In this document: positions 28,705 through 36,237 of the stretch, one piece after another
How positions within the stretch are numbered: the first letter of the stretch is position 1
How the letters are laid out: each line of letters opens with the position of its first letter
IMG/VR virus record: IMGVR_UViG_3300027749_000044
Length of the DNA: 64,000 bases
Origin: a virus
Direction: 5' to 3' (one strand)
The notes under the pieces: generated by a model
Database searches by the model: none
Seen by the model: the letters and a program-made list of their open reading frames with translations, nothing else
Told to the model about the DNA's origin: nothing
Translations under genes and position numbers: made by a program

Positions 28705-29448
28705 ATGTCTACACCAATAACAAGAGCACAGTTCAAGGCTAATGTATTAAGAAGAATTGGTGCACCTGTAATTGAAATTAACGTAGATGACGATCAAGTC
28801 GATGACAGGATTGACGAAGCTCTTAGTTATTGGCATGATTTCCATTACGACGGACAAACAAAACAATATTACAAGTATGGCCCGATTACAATAACCGACC
28901 AAACAAATAAGTATATTACTTTGCCTGCAAATATTATTGGGGCGGTTTCTATTTTTCCTGTAGGACAATCATTATCAACAAATAATCTTTTTAATATTAG
29001 ATATCAAATTGCATTGAATGATCTATATGATTTAACTGCAACAACGATGGTGCCATATTACATGGCCATGCAGCATATCCAATTCTTAGAACAGCTATTG
29101 GTTGGCAACCAACCAATTAGGTTCGAGAGACATTCTGGTAGATGTTATATAGACATGGATTGGACAAAAGTTAATGCCGGACAATATTTAATTATTGAAG
29201 CGTACGGAATAGTCGATCCTGATGTATATGCTGATGTTTGGTCGGACAGATGGCTACAAAGATATGCGGCCGCGCTGGTAAAACAACAGTGGGCAGAAAA
29301 TTTGTCAAAATATACTGAAGTAAGTTTACCAGGCGGAACCAAATTTAACGCCGTAAATATTATGCAAACTGCTTTATCGGAAAAAGAAAAATTAGAGGAA
29401 GAAATTAGGACAACCTATTCTCTTCCCCCTGGATTCTTTATGGGTTAA
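28705..29448 (+). CDS. gp13: Neck protein gp13
   Basis: LRRIGAPVIEINVDDDQVDDRIDEAL, ALVKQQWAENLSKY, LPGG..FMG. Confidence 0.92.
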   Translation: MSTPITRAQFKANVLRRIGAPVIEINVDDDQVDDRIDEALSYWHDFHYDGQTKQYYKYGPITITDQTNKYITLPANIIGAVSIFPVGQSLSTNNLFNIRYQIALNDLYDLTATTMVPYYMAMQHIQFLEQLLVGNQPIRFERHSGRCYIDMDWTKVNAGQYLIIEAYGIVDPDVYADVWSDRWLQRYAAALVKQQWAENLSKYTEVSLPGGTKFNAVNIMQTALSEKEKLEEEIRTTYSLPPGFFMG

Positions 29449-30542
29449 TGTTCTAATCTTAGAACATAATCCCAATCGATCATGCTACGTCTGTTATACT
29501 TGCATATGCCGCTAACATGCGGACAATAAAAATTGATGTGTTTGTCATACCAAAATGCACGATCTAATGCCGAAACAATAGATTTGCTGTCTGTTGGATC
29601 TGCCCATAATGTTTTATTTGACCAATCTATTTCAGGACAAGTAACAATTGGAACATCACAATTAATAAAATCGGCCGCCACAATGTTAAAAGTTTCAGAA
29701 AAAGAAACTTGCATTCCTATATCCATACTACGAACTAACAACAAAAAATCTTCGTGTTGCATCCAAGGATGTTCTATTAATTCACAGTCCTTGACGTGAT
29801 CAAATATTTCTCTTAAATTCTTGAGAATAGGTTGTCCATTTCCTTCGAGTCGATTTCCATTAATGTGGAAACGTAACTTTTTTTTCTTTTTGTGTGCAAA
29901 TTCTATTGCAGCAATAGCTTGTGTGATATGATTTTTTAAAGGACGGATTGCACCAAAACAACCAATGTCGAGTGTATCTTTGTTTTTAGGATATGGTGTT
30001 TTTTTTCTAACATTCAAGGGGTAATAATTCGGAAGATAATTTATTTTTCGTTCTACGAATTCTCTATCCCAAAATGGATATGTTTTCCACGCCAATAATC
30101 TAAGTTCACGCAAAGCTTTAGGATGATTACAAGAAACGTGAACATTTGGATATTGAAGGTATTGTAACGACCAACCAAATGCAATACCTTCATTGGCAAG
30201 GAAAGGAGTATTGCTGTGATTTCTAATGATCCAGATTACATTAGGATGTAATTTCGTTAGAATATCAAATTTTTCAGGAACAACCCAATATGCTTCAATA
30301 ATTACGTGTGTTGGTTGATATAAATTTACTTCGCGATCAATGTCATTGTTATCATGGACTTGTACTAATTTTGATTCGTAACCGAGATTTTCATACAACA
30401 TGTTACACACAAATTTAGCTGAATTCAATAATCCGCTAGATAGACCTTTTGTATATGCCCAATCTTTTGTTTCGAGTGTAGGATTATTATAAGTTCCATA
30501 ATCGCTTTCTCTGTATTTTAAAATAAATAATACACGTTTCAT
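29445..30542 (-). CDS. Glycosyltransferase (GT-B fold), with its own late promoter
   Basis: IGCFGAIRPLKN and QVSFSETFNIVAADFI (E-x7 motif region of GT4-like enzymes). Last gene of the sugar operon. Confidence 0.7.
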   Translation of the reverse strand: MKRVLFILKYRESDYGTYNNPTLETKDWAYTKGLSSGLLNSAKFVCNMLYENLGYESKLVQVHDNNDIDREVNLYQPTHVIIEAYWVVPEKFDILTKLHPNVIWIIRNHSNTPFLANEGIAFGWSLQYLQYPNVHVSCNHPKALRELRLLAWKTYPFWDREFVERKINYLPNYYPLNVRKKTPYPKNKDTLDIGCFGAIRPLKNHITQAIAAIEFAHKKKKKLRFHINGNRLEGNGQPILKNLREIFDHVKDCELIEHPWMQHEDFLLLVRSMDIGMQVSFSETFNIVAADFINCDVPIVTCPEIDWSNKTLWADPTDSKSIVSALDRAFWYDKHINFYCPHVSGICKYNRRSMIDWDYVLRLEH

Positions 30543-30567
30543 GATCCGCTCTCCTTGCTGGCGGATC

Positions 30568-30575
30568 TATTTATG
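30568..30575 (-). promoter_or_regulatory. T4-type late promoter CATAAATA for the 29445..30542 glycosyltransferase
   Basis: Forward TATTTATG is CATAAATA on the minus strand, about 25 nt upstream of the ATG; the same variant precedes gp13 and gp22. Confidence 0.65.
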
Positions 30576-30576
30576 G

Positions 30577-31167
30577 TTAAAACGGGTATGGATTCTTCAC
30601 ATCCGGCAATAAATTTTTGTGACGAATATTTTGCGCGATCATATGCATAATCATTTGGTGGCAGTCTTCCACGATTCCATAATTATTTTCTTTTACATGC
30701 ACGGTAACTTCAGATTCAAGAGACGCTCCTCCATCAAATCCACAAAAAGATATTACAGGCACATTATGGTTATGTGCAGTTTGTATTGCTTTTTTAATAT
30801 TAGGAGAATTTCCACTGGAAGAAATAGTAATCACTAAATCCATTTCGTTTAGATAATTATTAAGTTGATGCGAAAATACTTCTTCATATCCAATATCATT
30901 AGCAATCGCGGTAATAATAGGAACATTTGATGATAAAGATACAATCTTAGGACACAAATTTGTATTTGTTGAAATGCCTTTTTGACAATCACAAACCAAA
31001 TGATTGGCAATAGCAGCGGAACCTCCGTTACCACACACATATATGTGCCTGTTTGATTTTATCGTATTTTCAATTAACCAAGATGCATTATTAATTCCAA
31101 TGAATAGGTCTATGTCATCAAAGACTTTTGCAACTCTAGCCGCGTAATCTCGTGGAGTTATATACAA
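30577..31167 (-). CDS. gmhA: Phosphoheptose (sedoheptulose-7-phosphate) isomerase, SIS domain
   Basis: CGNGGSAAIANH, TAIANDIGYEEVF, ISSSGNSPNI, VEDCH. Confidence 0.88.
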   Translation of the reverse strand: MYITPRDYAARVAKVFDDIDLFIGINNASWLIENTIKSNRHIYVCGNGGSAAIANHLVCDCQKGISTNTNLCPKIVSLSSNVPIITAIANDIGYEEVFSHQLNNYLNEMDLVITISSSGNSPNIKKAIQTAHNHNVPVISFCGFDGGASLESEVTVHVKENNYGIVEDCHQMIMHMIAQNIRHKNLLPDVKNPYPF

Positions 31168-32137
31168 TTTCAGTTCCTTTATCTACAAAGTTAAAACGGA
31201 ACTCTTTGAGTCCCCGCTCTTCCATTTTCTTTTTTAATTCTTGTTGATTGTGTTTTTGACAATAAAACAAGAAATATCCTCCGCCGCCGGCACCAAGAAT
31301 TTTGCCGCCGGTCACTCCATGTGTCCTAGCATAATCATAAATGTCATCTAGATCAGGATCTGAAATCCCAGAAGCCAATTCTCTTTTTTTATGCCATGCT
31401 TCATCCAATAATGGACCAATGCCATCAATTTGTTCATTATACAACATATCTCTAGCAAAATAAACTTGTTCGACCATAGAATCTAACAATTTTGTGTATT
31501 TGTCGCTGGAAATATTTTGTATAGAATTTTGAACTTTCAAAATGTCATTTGCCTTTCGGGTACGACCGGTATAATACATCACCAAATTATCATCAAGTTT
31601 TTTGATTGTTGTGTTTGGAACCGATAGAGGTTTCACATTAACTCGACCAAAATTAAACTCAATAACATTCAACCCACCAAAAGATGCAGCATATTGATCT
31701 TGTTTACCAATTGGACTTTTGCATTTTTCGATTTCCATTTTGCACGCCAACTCTGCGATATCATATCGATTCATTGGTTGATTTTTAAATGTCGATAATG
31801 CATTGATCAATCCTACAGCATATGTAGAAGAAGACCCAAGTCCTGTACCAACCGTAGGAATATCGGCGAATGAACCAATTTCCATATTGGATTTGATTTT
31901 AAAGTGTTTGAGAATTTCCCTGGCCAATTCATGGTCAAGGTCTTTAGCATTTTCTACAACCTCCACTTTTGAATAGGTTAATTTTAGGTGTTGATTTGGT
32001 GTAGGATTAATCACAGTATGCATATACTTATCGATAGAGGTCGATAAAACTGCACCACCAAATACATTATAAAATTCAGCAACGTCAGATCCGCCACCGA
32101 AAAAACTAATCCGTAAAGGTGTTTTTGCTACAATCAT
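31136..32137 (-). CDS. hddA: GHMP kinase, D-glycero-alpha-D-manno-heptose-7-phosphate kinase-like
   Basis: KTPLRISFFGGGSD, GTGLGSSS, IGKQDQYAASFGG, GGKILGAGGGG. Confidence 0.85.
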   Translation of the reverse strand: MIVAKTPLRISFFGGGSDVAEFYNVFGGAVLSTSIDKYMHTVINPTPNQHLKLTYSKVEVVENAKDLDHELAREILKHFKIKSNMEIGSFADIPTVGTGLGSSSTYAVGLINALSTFKNQPMNRYDIAELACKMEIEKCKSPIGKQDQYAASFGGLNVIEFNFGRVNVKPLSVPNTTIKKLDDNLVMYYTGRTRKANDILKVQNSIQNISSDKYTKLLDSMVEQVYFARDMLYNEQIDGIGPLLDEAWHKKRELASGISDPDLDDIYDYARTHGVTGGKILGAGGGGYFLFYCQKHNQQELKKKMEERGLKEFRFNFVDKGTEIVYNSTRLRG

Positions 32138-32349
32138 AGTACTTTTATATATCCTGGTTCATATTCAATCTCAACGTTTGCCCATTCTAAATGACTCCCG
32201 TGAGAATCGGTTACAATATACCCATATTGTAATACTGGCATTTTTCCCATTTGATAATACCAACGAAGTTTAACTGGTCGCAAGTCCACAGTTTTCCATG
32301 GAGATAAGTATGATGTTTGTATAACATTTGCTGTATCTTCGAACATCAT
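32134..32349 (-). CDS. Hypothetical protein in sugar operon
   Basis: ATGA overlaps with both neighbours. Confidence 0.55.
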   Translation of the reverse strand: MMFEDTANVIQTSYLSPWKTVDLRPVKLRWYYQMGKMPVLQYGYIVTDSHGSHLEWANVEIEYEPGYIKVL

Positions 32350-33368
32350 CTCGTTCCTGTATTGAACGTGACAACTTGTTTAGGAAGAGCAAGGGACTTG
32401 CCTTCATACTCTCTCAATAATCCTTGCAACAGATTTGTCCACTGTGCAGTAATTTTTGTCCAATTATACCTTTGGTCCGCATACATTTTTACGAACTTAA
32501 GATAATTTTGCATATTTTCTTCATTGACTGTGTGGATGGCTTCGTTCATCATTCCGTAAAATATACTGGCATTGATATTTCTATTTCCATCCCATTGATA
32601 CATTGCAGTCAATCCTCCGGCAGTATCTGCCAGACCTGCATAATTTGGGTGAATACAAAGACAACCTGCGGACATTGCTTCGATTAATGAGCGCGAATTG
32701 CATTCCATCCAAATAGACGGATAAGCAAAAACATGAGCATTCTTGACGGTTTCTCTGACCACTTCATTTGTAGCAAACCCATGATAATTGATTTTCGGAT
32801 GTTGTCTGCAACGTTCATACAAAGGCTCATAATCAGCATCTCTTTGTTCCCATCCATAAATTTTAAATGAAGAAAATACGTCCAGTTGTAGGTTATCGTG
32901 GTGCTTGCATAGTTCTTCGAATACAGGAACTAGAAGCTCCAGACCCCGTTGGGGAGTGGAGGTATAGACAAACCGGATGATACCATCGTTTGGCTTTGTT
33001 ACATGTGGAAATGGAACAATAGCCGTCTCAATGACAGTTGACTTTGTGTCATGAGGAACACCATGGGTCATTTGGTATGCATTCATTTGCCAATGTCCGC
33101 AGTACACGGTCTTATGGAAACGATTTCTCAAATTGACATCTTTTAGATGTTCCGTTTCCGGATCACCAGGAAGATCATGTACATGATATATTCTAATTTT
33201 ATCTTCTCGTAAATGTCTAACCCTACTTGAAATTAATTGAAAATGCTGAATTAATTCTTGATCAACTCTAGAAACGATGCCTTCCATCATTTGTTCAGAG
33301 CCACCCATAGAATTTTTATTCAATTCGTTACGTTGCCATGCAACGTATTCTTCTTTCTTTTTAGTCAT
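32346..33368 (-). CDS. Glycosyltransferase family 4-like (GT-B)
   Basis: MGGSEQM, YTSTPQRGL, INYHG, FAYPSIWMECNSRSLIEAMSAG. Start reassigned to ATG 33368, which follows AAGGA. Confidence 0.85.
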   Translation of the reverse strand: MTKKKEEYVAWQRNELNKNSMGGSEQMMEGIVSRVDQELIQHFQLISSRVRHLREDKIRIYHVHDLPGDPETEHLKDVNLRNRFHKTVYCGHWQMNAYQMTHGVPHDTKSTVIETAIVPFPHVTKPNDGIIRFVYTSTPQRGLELLVPVFEELCKHHDNLQLDVFSSFKIYGWEQRDADYEPLYERCRQHPKINYHGFATNEVVRETVKNAHVFAYPSIWMECNSRSLIEAMSAGCLCIHPNYAGLADTAGGLTAMYQWDGNRNINASIFYGMMNEAIHTVNEENMQNYLKFVKMYADQRYNWTKITAQWTNLLQGLLREYEGKSLALPKQVVTFNTGTR

Positions 33369-34302
33369 TATTATTATCCTTATAATATTTCCATGCACTT
33401 TCAATGATATTATCGATATACGACGACTCACTGTAATGTGCCAAAAATTTCAAATCTCTGTTTTTGAATTTTGTGTTTGATCCTATCAAAATATCAGGAT
33501 CACCAGGTCGATATGGACCAATATTGAAATCGATTTTTGCGCCTGTTACTTCTTTGAACGTCAAAAATAAATCTATGTTTGACGTTCCTACACCAGTACT
33601 TAGATTGTATGCTTCCGCACCATAATTTCCTGCCAGTAATTCCGACAAAATGGCCCGACATACATCCAACACATGGATATAATCTCGAACACAGGTTCCG
33701 TCAAACGTTTCATATTTTTGACCATTGATCGTGAAATTTTTACCAGCAACTGCCGCACGACACATAGATGTGATAATATGAGGTTGGTCTGCCGATTGTC
33801 CTGTATTGTTTTTATTGTCGGCCCCGCAAACATTAAAAAATCTAAATGAAGTTGATTGGAATCCGTATGCCTCGAATGCATCTTGTAAAATATGCTCAAA
33901 ATGCAATTTTGTTTTTCCATATGGATTAATCGGATCTTTTTTGTCATACTCATTAATTTTACATCTGCGATTGCCATATACAGCAGCCGAAGAAGCAAAA
34001 ATAAATTTGCCTTTCCATCCACTGCCAATCAAAGCTTTCAGCATGGAAGTAGATCCTACCACATTATTATCATAATATGATAATGGATCTTTTACTGACG
34101 GTCCTAAAAGACTGTGTGCGCCTAGATGTACAATACCATGAATTTCATTCGGCATTGAAGTAAGTAATCGACGAATGCCGGTATAGTCATTACTGGGAAC
34201 GTCACGAAGATCCAATCCATATACTTGGTATCCAAATCCTTCCAAATACTTCTTAAGTACAGAACCAATATATCCTTTATGCCCGGTGATTATAATATTC
34301 AT
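33361..34302 (-). CDS. galE: NDP-sugar epimerase (GalE-like extended SDR)
   Basis: ITGHKGYIGS, SSAAVYG, YGKTK (YxxxK), RFFNVCGA, DGTCVRDYIHVLD, RPGDP. Confidence 0.8.
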   Translation of the reverse strand: MNIIITGHKGYIGSVLKKYLEGFGYQVYGLDLRDVPSNDYTGIRRLLTSMPNEIHGIVHLGAHSLLGPSVKDPLSYYDNNVVGSTSMLKALIGSGWKGKFIFASSAAVYGNRRCKINEYDKKDPINPYGKTKLHFEHILQDAFEAYGFQSTSFRFFNVCGADNKNNTGQSADQPHIITSMCRAAVAGKNFTINGQKYETFDGTCVRDYIHVLDVCRAILSELLAGNYGAEAYNLSTGVGTSNIDLFLTFKEVTGAKIDFNIGPYRPGDPDILIGSNTKFKNRDLKFLAHYSESSYIDNIIESAWKYYKDNNND

Positions 34303-34469
34303 TCTTCTTCCTTAAATTCTATTTCTTCCATTAATAGCGTATTATAACCTTCTGCGACTTGTAGTGCCAGCGACAAAGCAGCAAGACTATTAATTTTAAA
34401 CGCAATTTCCATTAAAGTTTTTGCAACCCACGCGGTAAAATATTGCCACCCAGTTAACTCATGTCTCAT
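34299..34469 (-). CDS. Small hypothetical protein (56 aa, not in the ORF track)
   Basis: MRHELTGWQYFTAWVAK...EFKEEE; ATGA overlaps at both ends. Confidence 0.55.
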   Translation of the reverse strand: MRHELTGWQYFTAWVAKTLMEIAFKINSLAALSLALQVAEGYNTLLMEEIEFKEEE

Positions 34470-34756
34470 AGACCAAACTCAATTGAAAGAATTGAATCGA
34501 CTCGGATCGAACGCCATTCATTGATTTCTGTGTCAAATACAGAGATTACACCAACAGAAGGAACTTTTGTTCTTTCGGTTTTCTTTTCCGGAGCCACGTA
34601 ATTTTCAGTAATATATTGATTGTTCAACGTGCAATACATCCGACGGGTGGTGCCATCTTTCTTTTCGAATTCAATTACGACGGTACCTTCATGTAAAAGT
34701 CCATCTAACCATGCCTTAAGTTGTACTTCTTGTGTATTATCTACTTCATTGTCCAT
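34466..34756 (-). CDS. Conserved T4-like SH3/WYL-like beta-barrel protein
   Basis: FEKKDGTTRRMYCTL...VFDTEINEWRSIRVD. Confidence 0.7.
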   Translation of the reverse strand: MDNEVDNTQEVQLKAWLDGLLHEGTVVIEFEKKDGTTRRMYCTLNNQYITENYVAPEKKTERTKVPSVGVISVFDTEINEWRSIRVDSILSIEFGL

Positions 34757-34991
34757 CGATATATTCCTCTAATTGTGTGAATCCGCCGATATAAGTTTCA
34801 TGACCAGAATTATGAACAACTATTTGTGGATATGTTTTTGCGTCAGGAAACTTTTCTAAAAGTTCATCGCGAGTAAAATGTTCGCCTAAATTAAAATATG
34901 TGTATGATTTGTCACATTCTGCCAATAAAGTTTCTGTCATCTTACAAAATGTGCAATCTGTTCTACCGTAAACATAAAAATGTTCTGCCAT
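34746..34991 (-). CDS. Glutaredoxin
   Basis: CTFC, TYPQI and IGGF motifs. Confidence 0.9.
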   Translation of the reverse strand: MAEHFYVYGRTDCTFCKMTETLLAECDKSYTYFNLGEHFTRDELLEKFPDAKTYPQIVVHNSGHETYIGGFTQLEEYIDGQ

Positions 34992-35470
34992 TAATTATTT
35001 TCCTTTAAATTAAATGTAAATTCGCCATCGACGACATTGATTTCTACTCTAGGATACTTACATGCATCTCCTCCGAGTCGGACGTAATCTCGACCACCGT
35101 CAATGAACCCGCCTGGAATACCATGCATATCATGCCGATATCTAGAAATATGAACTTCGCCTTTAGGATCTACAACACCCAATAATGGCGAGTCAAAACA
35201 CTTTTCACCGTTTGCTATCAAAAGTGGTCCTTTGGACCCATCATAATTTCGTTGATAATACATTGCAAAATAATTTGAATGACCAAGAGACCGGTCTGGA
35301 TTTTCTACGTAAAATAATTCGACAGGTTCTTCAGTCCAATTGCCGTTTTTCCGTGGCATTGCAAAATAACCTAGATACTTTGCTTTATATTTTTCACAAA
35401 CAATATTAATACCTTTGGCATTCAACCAATAGCCATCCGTAGGAACCGTAAGGAACATAGCTTTCTCCAT
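34991..35470 (-). CDS. Conserved hypothetical phage protein
   Basis: SRYRHD..FIDGGRDYVR; first gene after the early promoter. Confidence 0.6.
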   Translation of the reverse strand: MEKAMFLTVPTDGYWLNAKGINIVCEKYKAKYLGYFAMPRKNGNWTEEPVELFYVENPDRSLGHSNYFAMYYQRNYDGSKGPLLIANGEKCFDSPLLGVVDPKGEVHISRYRHDMHGIPGGFIDGGRDYVRLGGDACKYPRVEINVVDGEFTFNLKENN

Positions 35471-35482
35471 GATTTATATCCA

Positions 35483-35513
35483 ATCATACACCCTTCATAT
35501 AAATAAGGCAACC
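35483..35513 (-). promoter_or_regulatory. Sigma70-type early promoter of the sugar operon
   Basis: GG-TTGCCT-N17-TATGAT on the minus strand. Confidence 0.7.
35498..35505 (+). promoter_or_regulatory. T4 late promoter TATAAATA for gp14
   Basis: Exact gp55 consensus. Other exact copies at 5995, 17169, 39239, 43730, 47631, 57122; variants at 17815, 19756, 20363, 28678, 46461, 49036, 49643, 57722, 60520. Confidence 0.8.
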
Positions 35514-35532
35514 AGAAAAATAGGATTTTTTG

Positions 35533-36237
35533 ATGCCTACCACAAATTTCTTTTTTAACAATTTTTCATCGGCATCTGAACAGAGGCTTTTGGCTGATCT
35601 TAGTACAGAAATGATCAAAATGTATGGAGTGGAAGCTTATTATTTGCCTCGAACTCATGTTGCATTGGATCAACTATTTAATGCTGATGCTCTATCAAAA
35701 TTCGATCATGCCATTCCTTTAGAAATGTATATCAAAAATTTTTCTGGCTATCAAGGCGAAGGTGACATGCTATCTAAATTTGGCATCACAATGGCCGATC
35801 AAATTACATTTTGTATTTCTCGGACTAGATTTAGCGAAGATATCGGAAGTCCATATAATTTAATTAGACCAAATGAAGGTGATCTTGTTTATTTAGGCAT
35901 GACCTCCGCTTTGTTTGAAATAAAATTCGTCGAACATGAATCTACGTTCTATCAAACCGGATCATTGCAATATTATGAAATGAAATGTGAACGCTTTAAT
36001 TATAATAGCGAAAAACTTAATACAGGAATTCCAGACGTCGATATTATTGCCAATACATATAGTGAAGCTGGCGCAGTATTAACAACTATATCTGGAATTT
36101 CATTGCAAACATTAAATGGTGAACCAATTGAAATAAATTCAATTTCTGATCCTGCCGCACAAAATGACTATTTCGTTAATGCTGCGACGCAATTTGTTGA
36201 TTTTAGTGTAACAAATCCATTTGGAGATGTAATATAA
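35533..36237 (+). CDS. gp14: Neck protein gp14
   Basis: EMIKMYG..YLPR, LSKFG, RPNEGDLVY, FEIKFVEHE, NPFG. Confidence 0.92.
   Translation: MPTTNFFFNNFSSASEQRLLADLSTEMIKMYGVEAYYLPRTHVALDQLFNADALSKFDHAIPLEMYIKNFSGYQGEGDMLSKFGITMADQITFCISRTRFSEDIGSPYNLIRPNEGDLVYLGMTSALFEIKFVEHESTFYQTGSLQYYEMKCERFNYNSEKLNTGIPDVDIIANTYSEAGAVLTTISGISLQTLNGEPIEINSISDPAAQNDYFVNAATQFVDFSVTNPFGDVI

Follow-up and report, generated by a model that had tools for sequence, protein, structure and literature searches.

Genes of the heptose pathway have been annotated in T4-like phages, among them Caulobacter phage Cr30 and Synechococcus phage SynMITS9220M01, and have been discussed generically as lipopolysaccharide (LPS)-related (PMC7029224). 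Heptosylation of phage DNA and glycosylation of phage virions are also known, with other enzymes and hosts, and phage sugar pathways are usually labeled "LPS-like auxiliary genes" without a test. Here, we analyzed a 64,000-nucleotide stretch (the window) of the IMG/VR virus record IMGVR_UViG_3300027749_000044, in which a minus-strand block between the neck genes gp13 and gp14 encodes a GmhA-like sugar-phosphate isomerase, an HddA-like GHMP kinase, a GalE-type epimerase, and a GT4 glycosyltransferase (GT). Phage Cr30 carries the same families in the same order (AGS80890-AGS80896; KF301602, 1644-6761), with identities of 38-48% to the window proteins; GenBank lists them, as annotated function only, as a glutaredoxin, a UDP-glucose 4-epimerase, a glycosyltransferase, a "D,D-heptose 7-phosphate kinase," a small open reading frame (ORF), and a "phosphoheptose isomerase." The Cr30 block, like that of the window, has neither a nucleotidyltransferase nor a phosphatase. 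Unlike that of the window, it lies about 100 kb from gp13/gp14, is followed by a member of a family that we call f30 instead of a widespread GT-B glycosyltransferase, and lacks a WYL_2 gene.

We tentatively favor the reading that the block is a rearranged and trimmed sugar-donor module built around a cytoplasmic GT4 shared as a core enzyme by a clade of aquatic and alphaproteobacterial T4-like phages. The isomerase, a SIS enzyme, would turn sedoheptulose-7-phosphate (S7P) into D-glycero-D-manno-heptose-7-phosphate, and the kinase would then phosphorylate C1, presumably yielding the alpha-1,7-bisphosphate. In relatives, usually an RfaE-domain-II-like nucleotidyltransferase and sometimes a GmhB-like phosphatase would complete the nucleoside diphosphate (NDP)-heptose; neither enzyme is encoded by the window phage, Cr30, or the sister contig L006, and the window phage would borrow those of the host. 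The epimerase would provide a 4-epimerized UDP-hexose, and the retaining GT4, which has an EX7E motif, would move the sugar, most likely an alpha-heptose, to the acceptor. We infer all of these substrate assignments from family membership and gene context.

The AlphaFold2 (AF2) model of the GT4 shows a GT-B fold at a predicted local distance difference test (pLDDT) score of 92 and matches GT4 enzymes in Foldseek at an E value of 1e-11, and the EX7E pair E222/E230 is invariant in the family. The ORF can be extended to a GTG at 33431, and homologues begin at the ATG at 33368, which is probably the true start. Sinorhizobium phage phiM12 and about ten phage contigs assigned to bacterial metagenome-assembled genomes have a GT4 homologue in the same Grx-WYL2-GT4-f30-RNaseH-PhoH block with no kinase or isomerase, while in Stenotrophomonas phage DLP6 (L207) the GT4 gene directly follows that of glutaredoxin and no heptose genes are present. 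DLP6 additionally carries a GT-A "nucleotide-diphospho-sugar transferase" and a methyltransferase. Rhizobium and Ochrobactrum phages also have homologues of the GT4, which is syntenic and 36-46% identical across phages of Sinorhizobium, Rhizobium, Stenotrophomonas, Caulobacter, and uncultured aquatic hosts. A scan of 185,579 species genomes returned only 35 loci, mostly on evident phage contigs, and the family is thus essentially viral. In a quick IQ-TREE phylogeny, all 67 heptose-linked GT4s fell into one clade (Shimodaira-Hasegawa-like approximate likelihood ratio test [SH-aLRT] support, 99), with the heptose-less ones outside it; as the heptose-linked set was gathered through the kinase, this grouping is partly a sampling effect, and it shows that the linkage arose once and tells nothing of its retention. 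The window GT4 is sister (SH-aLRT, 100) to that of L006, a contig that keeps the ancestral arrangement.

The GT4 is thus best seen as core to the clade, and the heptose genes look like donor-supply add-ons gained once. The GT4 would consume the product of these genes, a proposal that we make mainly because donor-making genes accreted on both of its sides. Retaining GT4 enzymes need an alpha-linked NDP-sugar and HddA-type kinases make an alpha-1-phosphate (the Kneidinger/Valvano pathways), while the beta-ADP-heptose route feeds inverting GT9 enzymes. From this established pathway knowledge, the chemistry expected of the GT4 would agree with an HddA-type alpha-1-phosphate route.

A megablast comparison of the 6-kb block with GenBank phages gave no match. 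A search for relatives with the single kinase sequence found no loci, and a kinase alignment was needed; a pattern scan of IMG/VR based on that alignment gave at least 470 confirmed contigs. Together with Cr30 and the window, 80 IMG/VR loci among these contigs made up a set of 82, in which the isomerase was found in 78, the GT4 in 69, the GalE-type epimerase in 46, WYL_2 in 44, and glutaredoxin in 24, all in constant order. The members of the core trio GT4-HddA-GmhA, therefore, were present in 69-78 of the 82 loci, with their order fixed. The usual context begins with nrdA-nrdB-(segE)-Grx-WYL2-[AdoMet_dc-like]-[PF01467 nucleotidyltransferase]-[methyltransferase or HAD phosphatase]-GalE and continues with GT4-kinase-isomerase-[f30]-f10-RNase H-DUF6433-PhoH-PD-(D/E)XK. 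The closest kinase relatives, P0002 and P0003, share 81% kinase identity with the window phage, whose kinase, isomerase, and GT4 have lost none of the residues that are invariant in their families. The isomerase gene of one relative is directly followed by that of a 2OG-Fe(II) oxygenase (PF13759; L073:11556-12197); oxygenases of its superfamily can furnish proteins or bases with hydroxyl acceptors.

The pathway steps beyond the kinase were counted in the 46 syntenic loci with enough upstream sequence. A 140-aa PF01467 nucleotidyltransferase was present in 40 of them, its best NCBIfam match being TIGR02199 rfaE_dom_II at 68-74 bits (cut-off, 181), the domain of heptose-1-phosphate adenylyltransferases. 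A GmhB-like HAD-IIIA phosphatase was found in 7 and a methyltransferase in 10, and 6, including Cr30 and L006, had neither the nucleotidyltransferase nor the phosphatase. In the nonsyntenic contigs L041, L050, L076, and L083, the kinase occurs with HddC-like and GmhB genes. These associations strongly support the prediction of a heptose pathway.

The three donor enzymes were assigned at family level. A profile of the window kinase and 28 homologues matched the solved heptose-7-phosphate kinases WcbL (4usm/4usk), 3k85, and 4n3o with E values from 9e-72 to 1e-67, and the next family, fucokinase, at 3e-29. The kinase, therefore, falls in the HddA/WcbL heptose-7-phosphate kinase group, as had been proposed, and D-glycero-D-manno-heptose-7-phosphate 1-kinase activity is predicted for it. 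The best solved relatives of the isomerase are GmhA structures (5by2, 9e-25; 1x92, 1e-20), ahead of the paralogue DiaA (6e-17), and the phosphate-binding SSSGNS (116-121) and IAND (88-91) motifs are kept. Residues H56, D60, E167, and H175 are invariant in 74 of 74 phage homologues and align with the zinc/catalytic tetrad of GmhA, which we take to be His61-Glu65-Gln172-His180 in E. coli numbering (positions assigned with the help of alignments with PDB structures). The canonical tetrad is thus His-Glu-Gln-His, whereas that of the phage family is a conserved His-Asp-Glu-His variant; on these residues, the phage H-D-E-H proteins are a distinct subfamily. As for the epimerase, its 30 top solved relatives are all UDP-Glc/Gal 4-epimerases (8wxk, 5e-48), and the GxxGxxG, Ser, and YxxxK (YGKTK) motifs are aligned. 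The original prediction had named these proteins a GmhA, an HddA-like kinase, and a GalE-like epimerase; all three names hold at the level of the family, and judged by their scores the proteins are divergent family members rather than proven equivalogs.

The original prediction had also stated that GmhB and an HddC-type nucleotidyltransferase are absent from the window, and this absence extends to the complete genome. Searches of the complete genome for a nucleotidyltransferase gave no match to PF00483, NF049965 (HddC), or TIGR02199 and nothing below an E value of 1 with a hidden Markov model (HMM) of the relatives' own nucleotidyltransferase family (family 5); PF01467 reached only 13.5 bits, inside a 555-aa ORF. 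Searches for GmhB found no match to PF13242 or TIGR00213 and nothing with the f26 HMM. The f30 protein (about 370 aa), which follows the module in Cr30 and L006, was considered as a substitute for the nucleotidyltransferase and rejected, as both co-occur in three loci; it has no Pfam or PDB signal. Since neither enzyme was found, the phage genes would take S7P only to heptose-1,7-bisphosphate, and host enzymes would have to finish the route unless the GT4 uses another donor.

The window corresponds to positions 6398-70397, read on the reverse strand, of a complete 151,248-bp IMG/VR record with direct terminal repeats. The source phage is T4-like and comes from freshwater metagenomes, a habitat assignment that leaves aside the small-share sequencing runs X3-X5. 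Caulobacter phage Cr30, Methylophilales phage Melnitz, and cyanomyophages have large terminases that share 54-57% identity with its own. Nearly all genes of the window are structural and lie on the plus strand, and the sole sizeable minus-strand island consists of ten ORFs at 29445-35470 (29445-35511 with its candidate promoter), which separates gp13 from gp14. A single 54-kb contig at 44.8x coverage spans the insertion, and an identical contig from a second, independent sample and study bridges the block/gp14 junction (35360-35938; right junction only). The insertion is, for these reasons, genuine and not an assembly artifact. The claim that a minus-strand block parts two normally adjacent neck genes is thus confirmed by ORFs, domains, and contig coverage, and in five relatives (four large IMG/VR genomes and Cr30) gp13 indeed abuts gp14, with the module 25-100 kb away from gp14. 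One contig of run X4 fuses gp13 (to 29009) with gp14 (from 35721), skipping 6711 bases, although its shorter side is a weak 24 nt; it may stem from a co-occurring relative with uninterrupted gp13-gp14.

The original prediction named the insertion between neck genes in proposing a virion (or DNA) heptosylation system, but this position does not support virion glycosylation: in about 80 relatives the module lies in the nrd-RNase H region, and no gp13, gp14, or gp15 gene is located within 10 kb of it in any of the 80 relatives' loci. The genome of the window phage itself retains the ancestral site, with RNase H, f10, and f30 at 124078-126417, and the module is not present there. Because gp13 and gp14 are adjacent in the five relatives and the ancestral site is retained without the module, the neck position is a derived, lineage-specific translocation of the Grx-to-GmhA block. 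Its translocated position, therefore, reveals nothing of its function and does not argue for the virion as target. A segE-type GIY-YIG homing endonuclease gene (126918-127301, within the region G000:C1:124078-127510) sits exactly at the place that the module occupies in relatives, and the module may have moved through a rearrangement driven by this endonuclease.

Other grounds bear on the acceptor. We suggest, with reservation, that it is a phage-made macromolecule, namely, a virion protein. The guess of a virion protein rests on the GT4 having been kept in a conserved replication-side block across hosts with very different envelopes, and a cytoplasmic, phage-made acceptor is favored because no export, flippase, or ligase genes occur in any sampled module. 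A phage-made acceptor is also favored because one relative, G001, which has an nrd-side module as well, carries a second glycan cluster on the late strand directly upstream of gp13 (L167:97-7152; G001:C1:134096-141151). This cluster comprises genes for a sulfotransferase, a GT2, a methyltransferase, an APS-kinase-like protein, a PfkB sugar kinase, a PF01467 protein, a HAD protein, and an SDR epimerase, and from these families it looks like an ADP-heptose-type route with tailoring enzymes. A scan of all proteins for Ser/Thr-rich stretches returned only fiber-like proteins and one Ser-repeat ORF and was not informative on the acceptor. The latter, a 113-aa ORF with an (SSSSN)n repeat (G000:C1:148274-148615), may be spurious or a Ser-rich glycosylation substrate.

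The conservation of the GT4 also bears on remodeling of the host envelope, an alternative that we regard as rather unlikely. According to it, the heptose supply would be raised or diverted and the GT4 would glycosylate a lipid-linked LPS-core, capsule, or S-layer intermediate at the cytoplasmic face, and the altered cell surface would lead to superinfection exclusion or to fewer progeny lost on debris. Such a role would suit heptose, which is characteristic of LPS cores, capsules, and S-layer glycans, as well as the many GT4 enzymes that use lipid-linked or polysaccharide acceptors (HepE, PimA, and TarM are among the fold matches), the early-type candidate promoter of the block, and the early-gene surroundings of the module in relatives. 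The reliance on host GmhB and nucleotidyltransferase likewise implies a host with a heptose pathway. However, the level of GT4 identity and synteny given above is maintained in phages of very different hosts, whose LPS cores differ and in some cases lack heptose; the gene is located in the replication-side block and not in a hypervariable host-recognition region; and a flippase, polymerase, ligase, or membrane protein was found in none of the sampled modules. An envelope role is the reading that has been given for the LPS-like genes of pelagimyophages and cyanomyophages (PMC7029224).

An acceptor in phage DNA would explain conservation across hosts, with an NDP-heptose or UDP-Gal used by the GT4 or the late GT-B to glycosylate a modified base, much as in T-even glucosylation. 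A phage cluster of kinase/HAD, cytidylyltransferase, and GT-B genes puts heptose on 5-hydroxymethylcytosine (5hmC), and epimerase-GT pairs occur among such systems (bioRxiv 10.1101/2023.12.21.572611). Moreover, the module of relatives is located amid replication and nucleotide-metabolism genes, and a fold search with the terminal GT-B returned T4 alpha-glucosyltransferase (AGT) at rank 25. However, every known acceptor-making enzyme is absent: searches of the complete genome gave no match to PF00303 (ThyA-family hydroxymethylase), PF12851 (Tet/JBP), or PF00145 (C5-cytosine methyltransferase), and a ThyX is encoded. ThyA-like matches in module-bearing relatives are inconsistent, with none in two, weak ones in two, and a true ThyA in Cr30; the T4 AGT fold matches are no better than those of dozens of GT4 enzymes; and the heptosyl-5hmC cluster of Pyle et al. 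depends on a methyltransferase and a TET enzyme. DNA, which the original prediction had listed as a possible heptose target, is disfavored by these results, and we consider it very improbable.

The GT4 might instead glycosylate a metabolite, an RNA, or a host protein, or the heptose phosphates themselves might matter, through a drain on S7P or through heptose-1,7-bisphosphate. The structural matches include enzymes with small acceptors, i.e., BshA (malate), MshA (inositol-phosphate), GlgM (Glc-1-phosphate), sucrose-phosphate synthase, and SenB; the phage-encoded pathway ends at the bisphosphate; and relatives' modules sometimes add TylF-like O-methyltransferases, which are typical of natural-product sugars. 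However, the tight and lasting linkage of kinase and isomerase to a GT, and mostly to a nucleotidyltransferase too, points to an NDP-sugar that is used by the GT, and a small-molecule or nonstructural target has no precedent in T4-like phages. We therefore judge it improbable.

Several observations weigh against the favored reading and the virion-protein acceptor. Because every equivalog cut-off was missed, the substrates could differ: the kinase scored 182 bits with NF049969 (cut-off, 600), the isomerase 68-107 bits with all GmhA equivalog models (cut-offs, 209-320; NF010546, 106.6 versus 276; TIGR00441, 100 versus 209; NF001628, 81.7 versus 265), and the epimerase, narrowly, 232 bits with TIGR01179 (cut-off, 262). 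The paralogous arabinose pathway of RB69/DLP3-type phages consists of the same enzyme classes (PMC13326640). Fold searches with both transferases returned generic GT4 matches and did not separate protein, lipid, small-molecule, and DNA acceptors; those of the GT4 include every acceptor kind (BshA, HepE, SdgB, TarM, GtfA, SenB, and PimA). The early timing and the placement among nucleotide-metabolism genes fit host-surface or nucleic-acid targets better than the virion. An alpha-specific kinase would not fit a host HldE-type adenylyltransferase, which is beta-specific, and the GT4 may alternatively use something else, e.g., the GalE product, or the route may stall. The sampling behind the GT4 tree counts on the same side.

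If the favored reading is carried to the whole clade, i.e., Cr30, phiM12, DLP6, and hundreds of freshwater and marine relatives, an early GT4 would decorate a phage-made polymer and one subclade would make its own NDP-alpha-heptose. We hold this extension to be doubtful; if true, phages of Gram-negative hosts would have virions, or some other phage component, that carry heptose.

The last gene of the block, which had been counted as a second glycosyltransferase of the heptose operon, is of a different kind. Its AF2 model (pLDDT, 89) has a GT-B fold with matches to SenB, MshA, BshA, and GlgM, so that the call of two GT-B transferases is correct, but its membership in the operon is not: none of 80 sampled neighborhoods of its homologues contains heptose genes, and the gene belongs outside the heptose module. 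The family counts 5157 homologues and occurs on at least 591 IMG/VR contigs; its members are mostly viral and about 50% identical across unrelated phage types, including the Ralstonia jumbo phages phiRSL1 (next to DNA polymerase I) and RsoM2USA, and its only recurrent neighbor is a downstream 65-aa ORF (25 of 80 loci). This wide conservation suggests a universal acceptor. Adjacent ORFs from the 159-aa ORF through the SIS isomerase overlap by 1-32 nt, whereas the terminal GT-B gene is set apart by a 34-nt gap with its own candidate late promoter and hairpin; the tight coupling claimed for the operon thus stands for all but this gene. On the minus strand of the window, NATAAATA occurs just once, in this promoter as CATAAATA. 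On the plus strand, nine copies of TATAAATA and five of CATAAATA (14 in total) all face structural genes, mostly 20-40 nt upstream. The hairpin folds at -13.9 kcal/mol (z, -3.2), with an AAGGAG Shine-Dalgarno sequence in its loop and the AUG covered by its stems, and a late transcript starting a few bases past CATAAATA would be without the 5' arms. The terminal GT-B is thus probably translated late from this candidate promoter. Such a layout would resemble that described for T4 lysozyme.

TABLE 1 Features of the minus-strand block and its flanks, with positions in the window
Feature	Position	Strand	Evidence
gp13-type neck/head-tail adaptor (left flank)	28705-29448	+	phrog_211, E 5e-37
Stand-alone GT-B glycosyltransferase, 365 aa	29445-30542	-	weak PF13692/PF00534 matches
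Candidate late promoter CATAAATA and hairpin before terminal GT-B	30543-30575 (promoter 30575-30568)	-	
GmhA-like SIS sugar-phosphate isomerase	30577-31167	-	PF13580 70.8 bits (cut-off 27), residues 8-142
HddA/WcbL-type GHMP kinase	31136-32137	-	PF00288 52.4 bits; PF08544 31.6 bits
71-aa ORF, no function assigned, not conserved	32134-32349	-	no match
Retaining-type GT4 glycosyltransferase, 340 aa	32346-33368	-	PF00534 41.6 bits (cut-off 26.4)
GalE-type NAD-dependent UDP-hexose 4-epimerase (SDR)	33361-34302	-	PF01370, E 1e-40
56-aa ORF, no function assigned, not conserved	34299-34469	-	no match
WYL_2 (DUF2693) small protein	34466-34756	-	PF10902 52.7 bits
Glutaredoxin (NrdC/Grx-type)	34746-34991	-	PF00462 36 bits; phrog_22
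159-aa ORF, first gene of block	34991-35470	-	phrog_12504 (unknown) only
Candidate sigma70-type early promoter, TTGCCT-17 nt-TATGAT	35483-35511	-	consensus match only
Late promoter TATAAATA before gp14	35498-35505	+	
gp14 neck protein (right flank)	35530-36237	+	PF11649, E 4e-35; phrog_460

The remaining genes of the block are small (Table 1). The gene list of the original prediction was right as to GmhA, the HddA-like kinase, the GalE-like epimerase, two GT-B enzymes, and the glutaredoxin, but it left out WYL_2 and three or four small or unknown ORFs. Glutaredoxin, which had been listed as part of the operon, is a carried-along neighbor of the NrdC type and comes after nrdA-nrdB in relatives. 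A tblastn search of the complete genome with the relatives' nrdA and nrdB gave no match; the window phage has kept this glutaredoxin, which moved with the module, though nrdA/nrdB were not found. WYL_2 is a conserved neighbor of Grx and the GT4 and is also found beside them in phiM12. The 159-aa ORF has no Pfam, NCBIfam, or usable atlas match and is absent beside the module in relatives; the idea that it is a hidden nucleotidyltransferase or phosphatase was rejected solely for want of any signal.

Upstream of the 159-aa ORF, the candidate early promoter sits in a 59-nt divergent gap shared with the late promoter of gp14, and the Grx-to-GmhA block is probably transcribed early from this sigma70-like element; a sigma70 scan of the region gave a number of sites not above that of shuffled sequences. 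At the other end (29445-29465), gp13 on the plus strand and the terminal GT-B gene on the minus strand share the palindrome TTAA in their overlapping stop codons. An intergenic terminator is absent, so that two late transcription units converge head-on; a short inverted repeat, GTTCTAA..TTAGAAC, follows within the coding end of the GT-B gene. The window gp13 is 52-62% identical to the gp13 of relatives, and gp14 is followed downstream by gp15, gp16, gp17, sheath, tube, and portal genes.

Compared with what has been described, three aspects of this locus are new: a module that is compact, vertically inherited, and arranged around a clade-core GT4; a noncanonical mix of a GHMP kinase, an RfaE-domain-II-type nucleotidyltransferase, and an H-D-E-H isomerase; and the reduced, translocated form of the module in the window phage. 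Heptose genes thus appear as add-ons to a GT core in a large and abundant aquatic and soil T4-like clade. The acceptor question is open to direct test, as the module is present in phage Cr30 of the genetic model Caulobacter crescentus and Sinorhizobium phage phiM12 and Stenotrophomonas phage DLP6 have the GT4 alone. It would be new biology if phages of Gram-negative bacteria proved to have heptosylated virions or if a new NDP-heptose came to light, and if an effect on host LPS proved true, the standard LPS assumption would gain firm ground.

Of the GDP-D-glycero-alpha-D-manno-heptose pathway of S-layers and capsules (GmhA, HddA/WcbL, GmhB, and HddC), the first two families are present and adjacent here. 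However, the window genome is without GmhB and HddC, and relatives use the RfaE-domain-II-type PF01467 protein instead of HddC. With phage DNA-sugar clusters (T4 alpha/beta-GT; the 5mYOX GT clusters of Pyle et al. 2024, with heptosyl-5hmC in contig 53), the module shares the logic of kinase, (phosphatase), cytidylyltransferase-like, and GT-B genes, the pairing of epimerase and GT, and heptose; unlike them, it is accompanied by no C5-methyltransferase, TET/5mYOX, or dCMP hydroxymethylase, and its kinase is GHMP, not APH-like. Mycobacteriophage virion glycosylation (Freeman et al. 2023, as cited in PMC12619734 and PMC12801897) is a likeness in that soluble phage GTs could modify virion proteins inside the cytoplasm and would need no export machinery. 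As far as the citing papers describe that system, it differs in GT families, hosts, and sugars, and lies in a late structural operon, whereas the module, known here from genes, is ancestrally on the early side. Finally, pelagimyophages and cyanomyophages (PMC7029224) are, as here, aquatic T4-like phages with heptose-pathway genes and glycosyltransferases, and SynMITS9220M01 has an annotated kinase, isomerase, nucleotidyltransferases, phosphatases, and epimerases. Their clusters, however, are large, variable, and located by the tail-fiber genes, whereas the module described here is compact and vertically inherited on the replication side, around its clade-core GT4.

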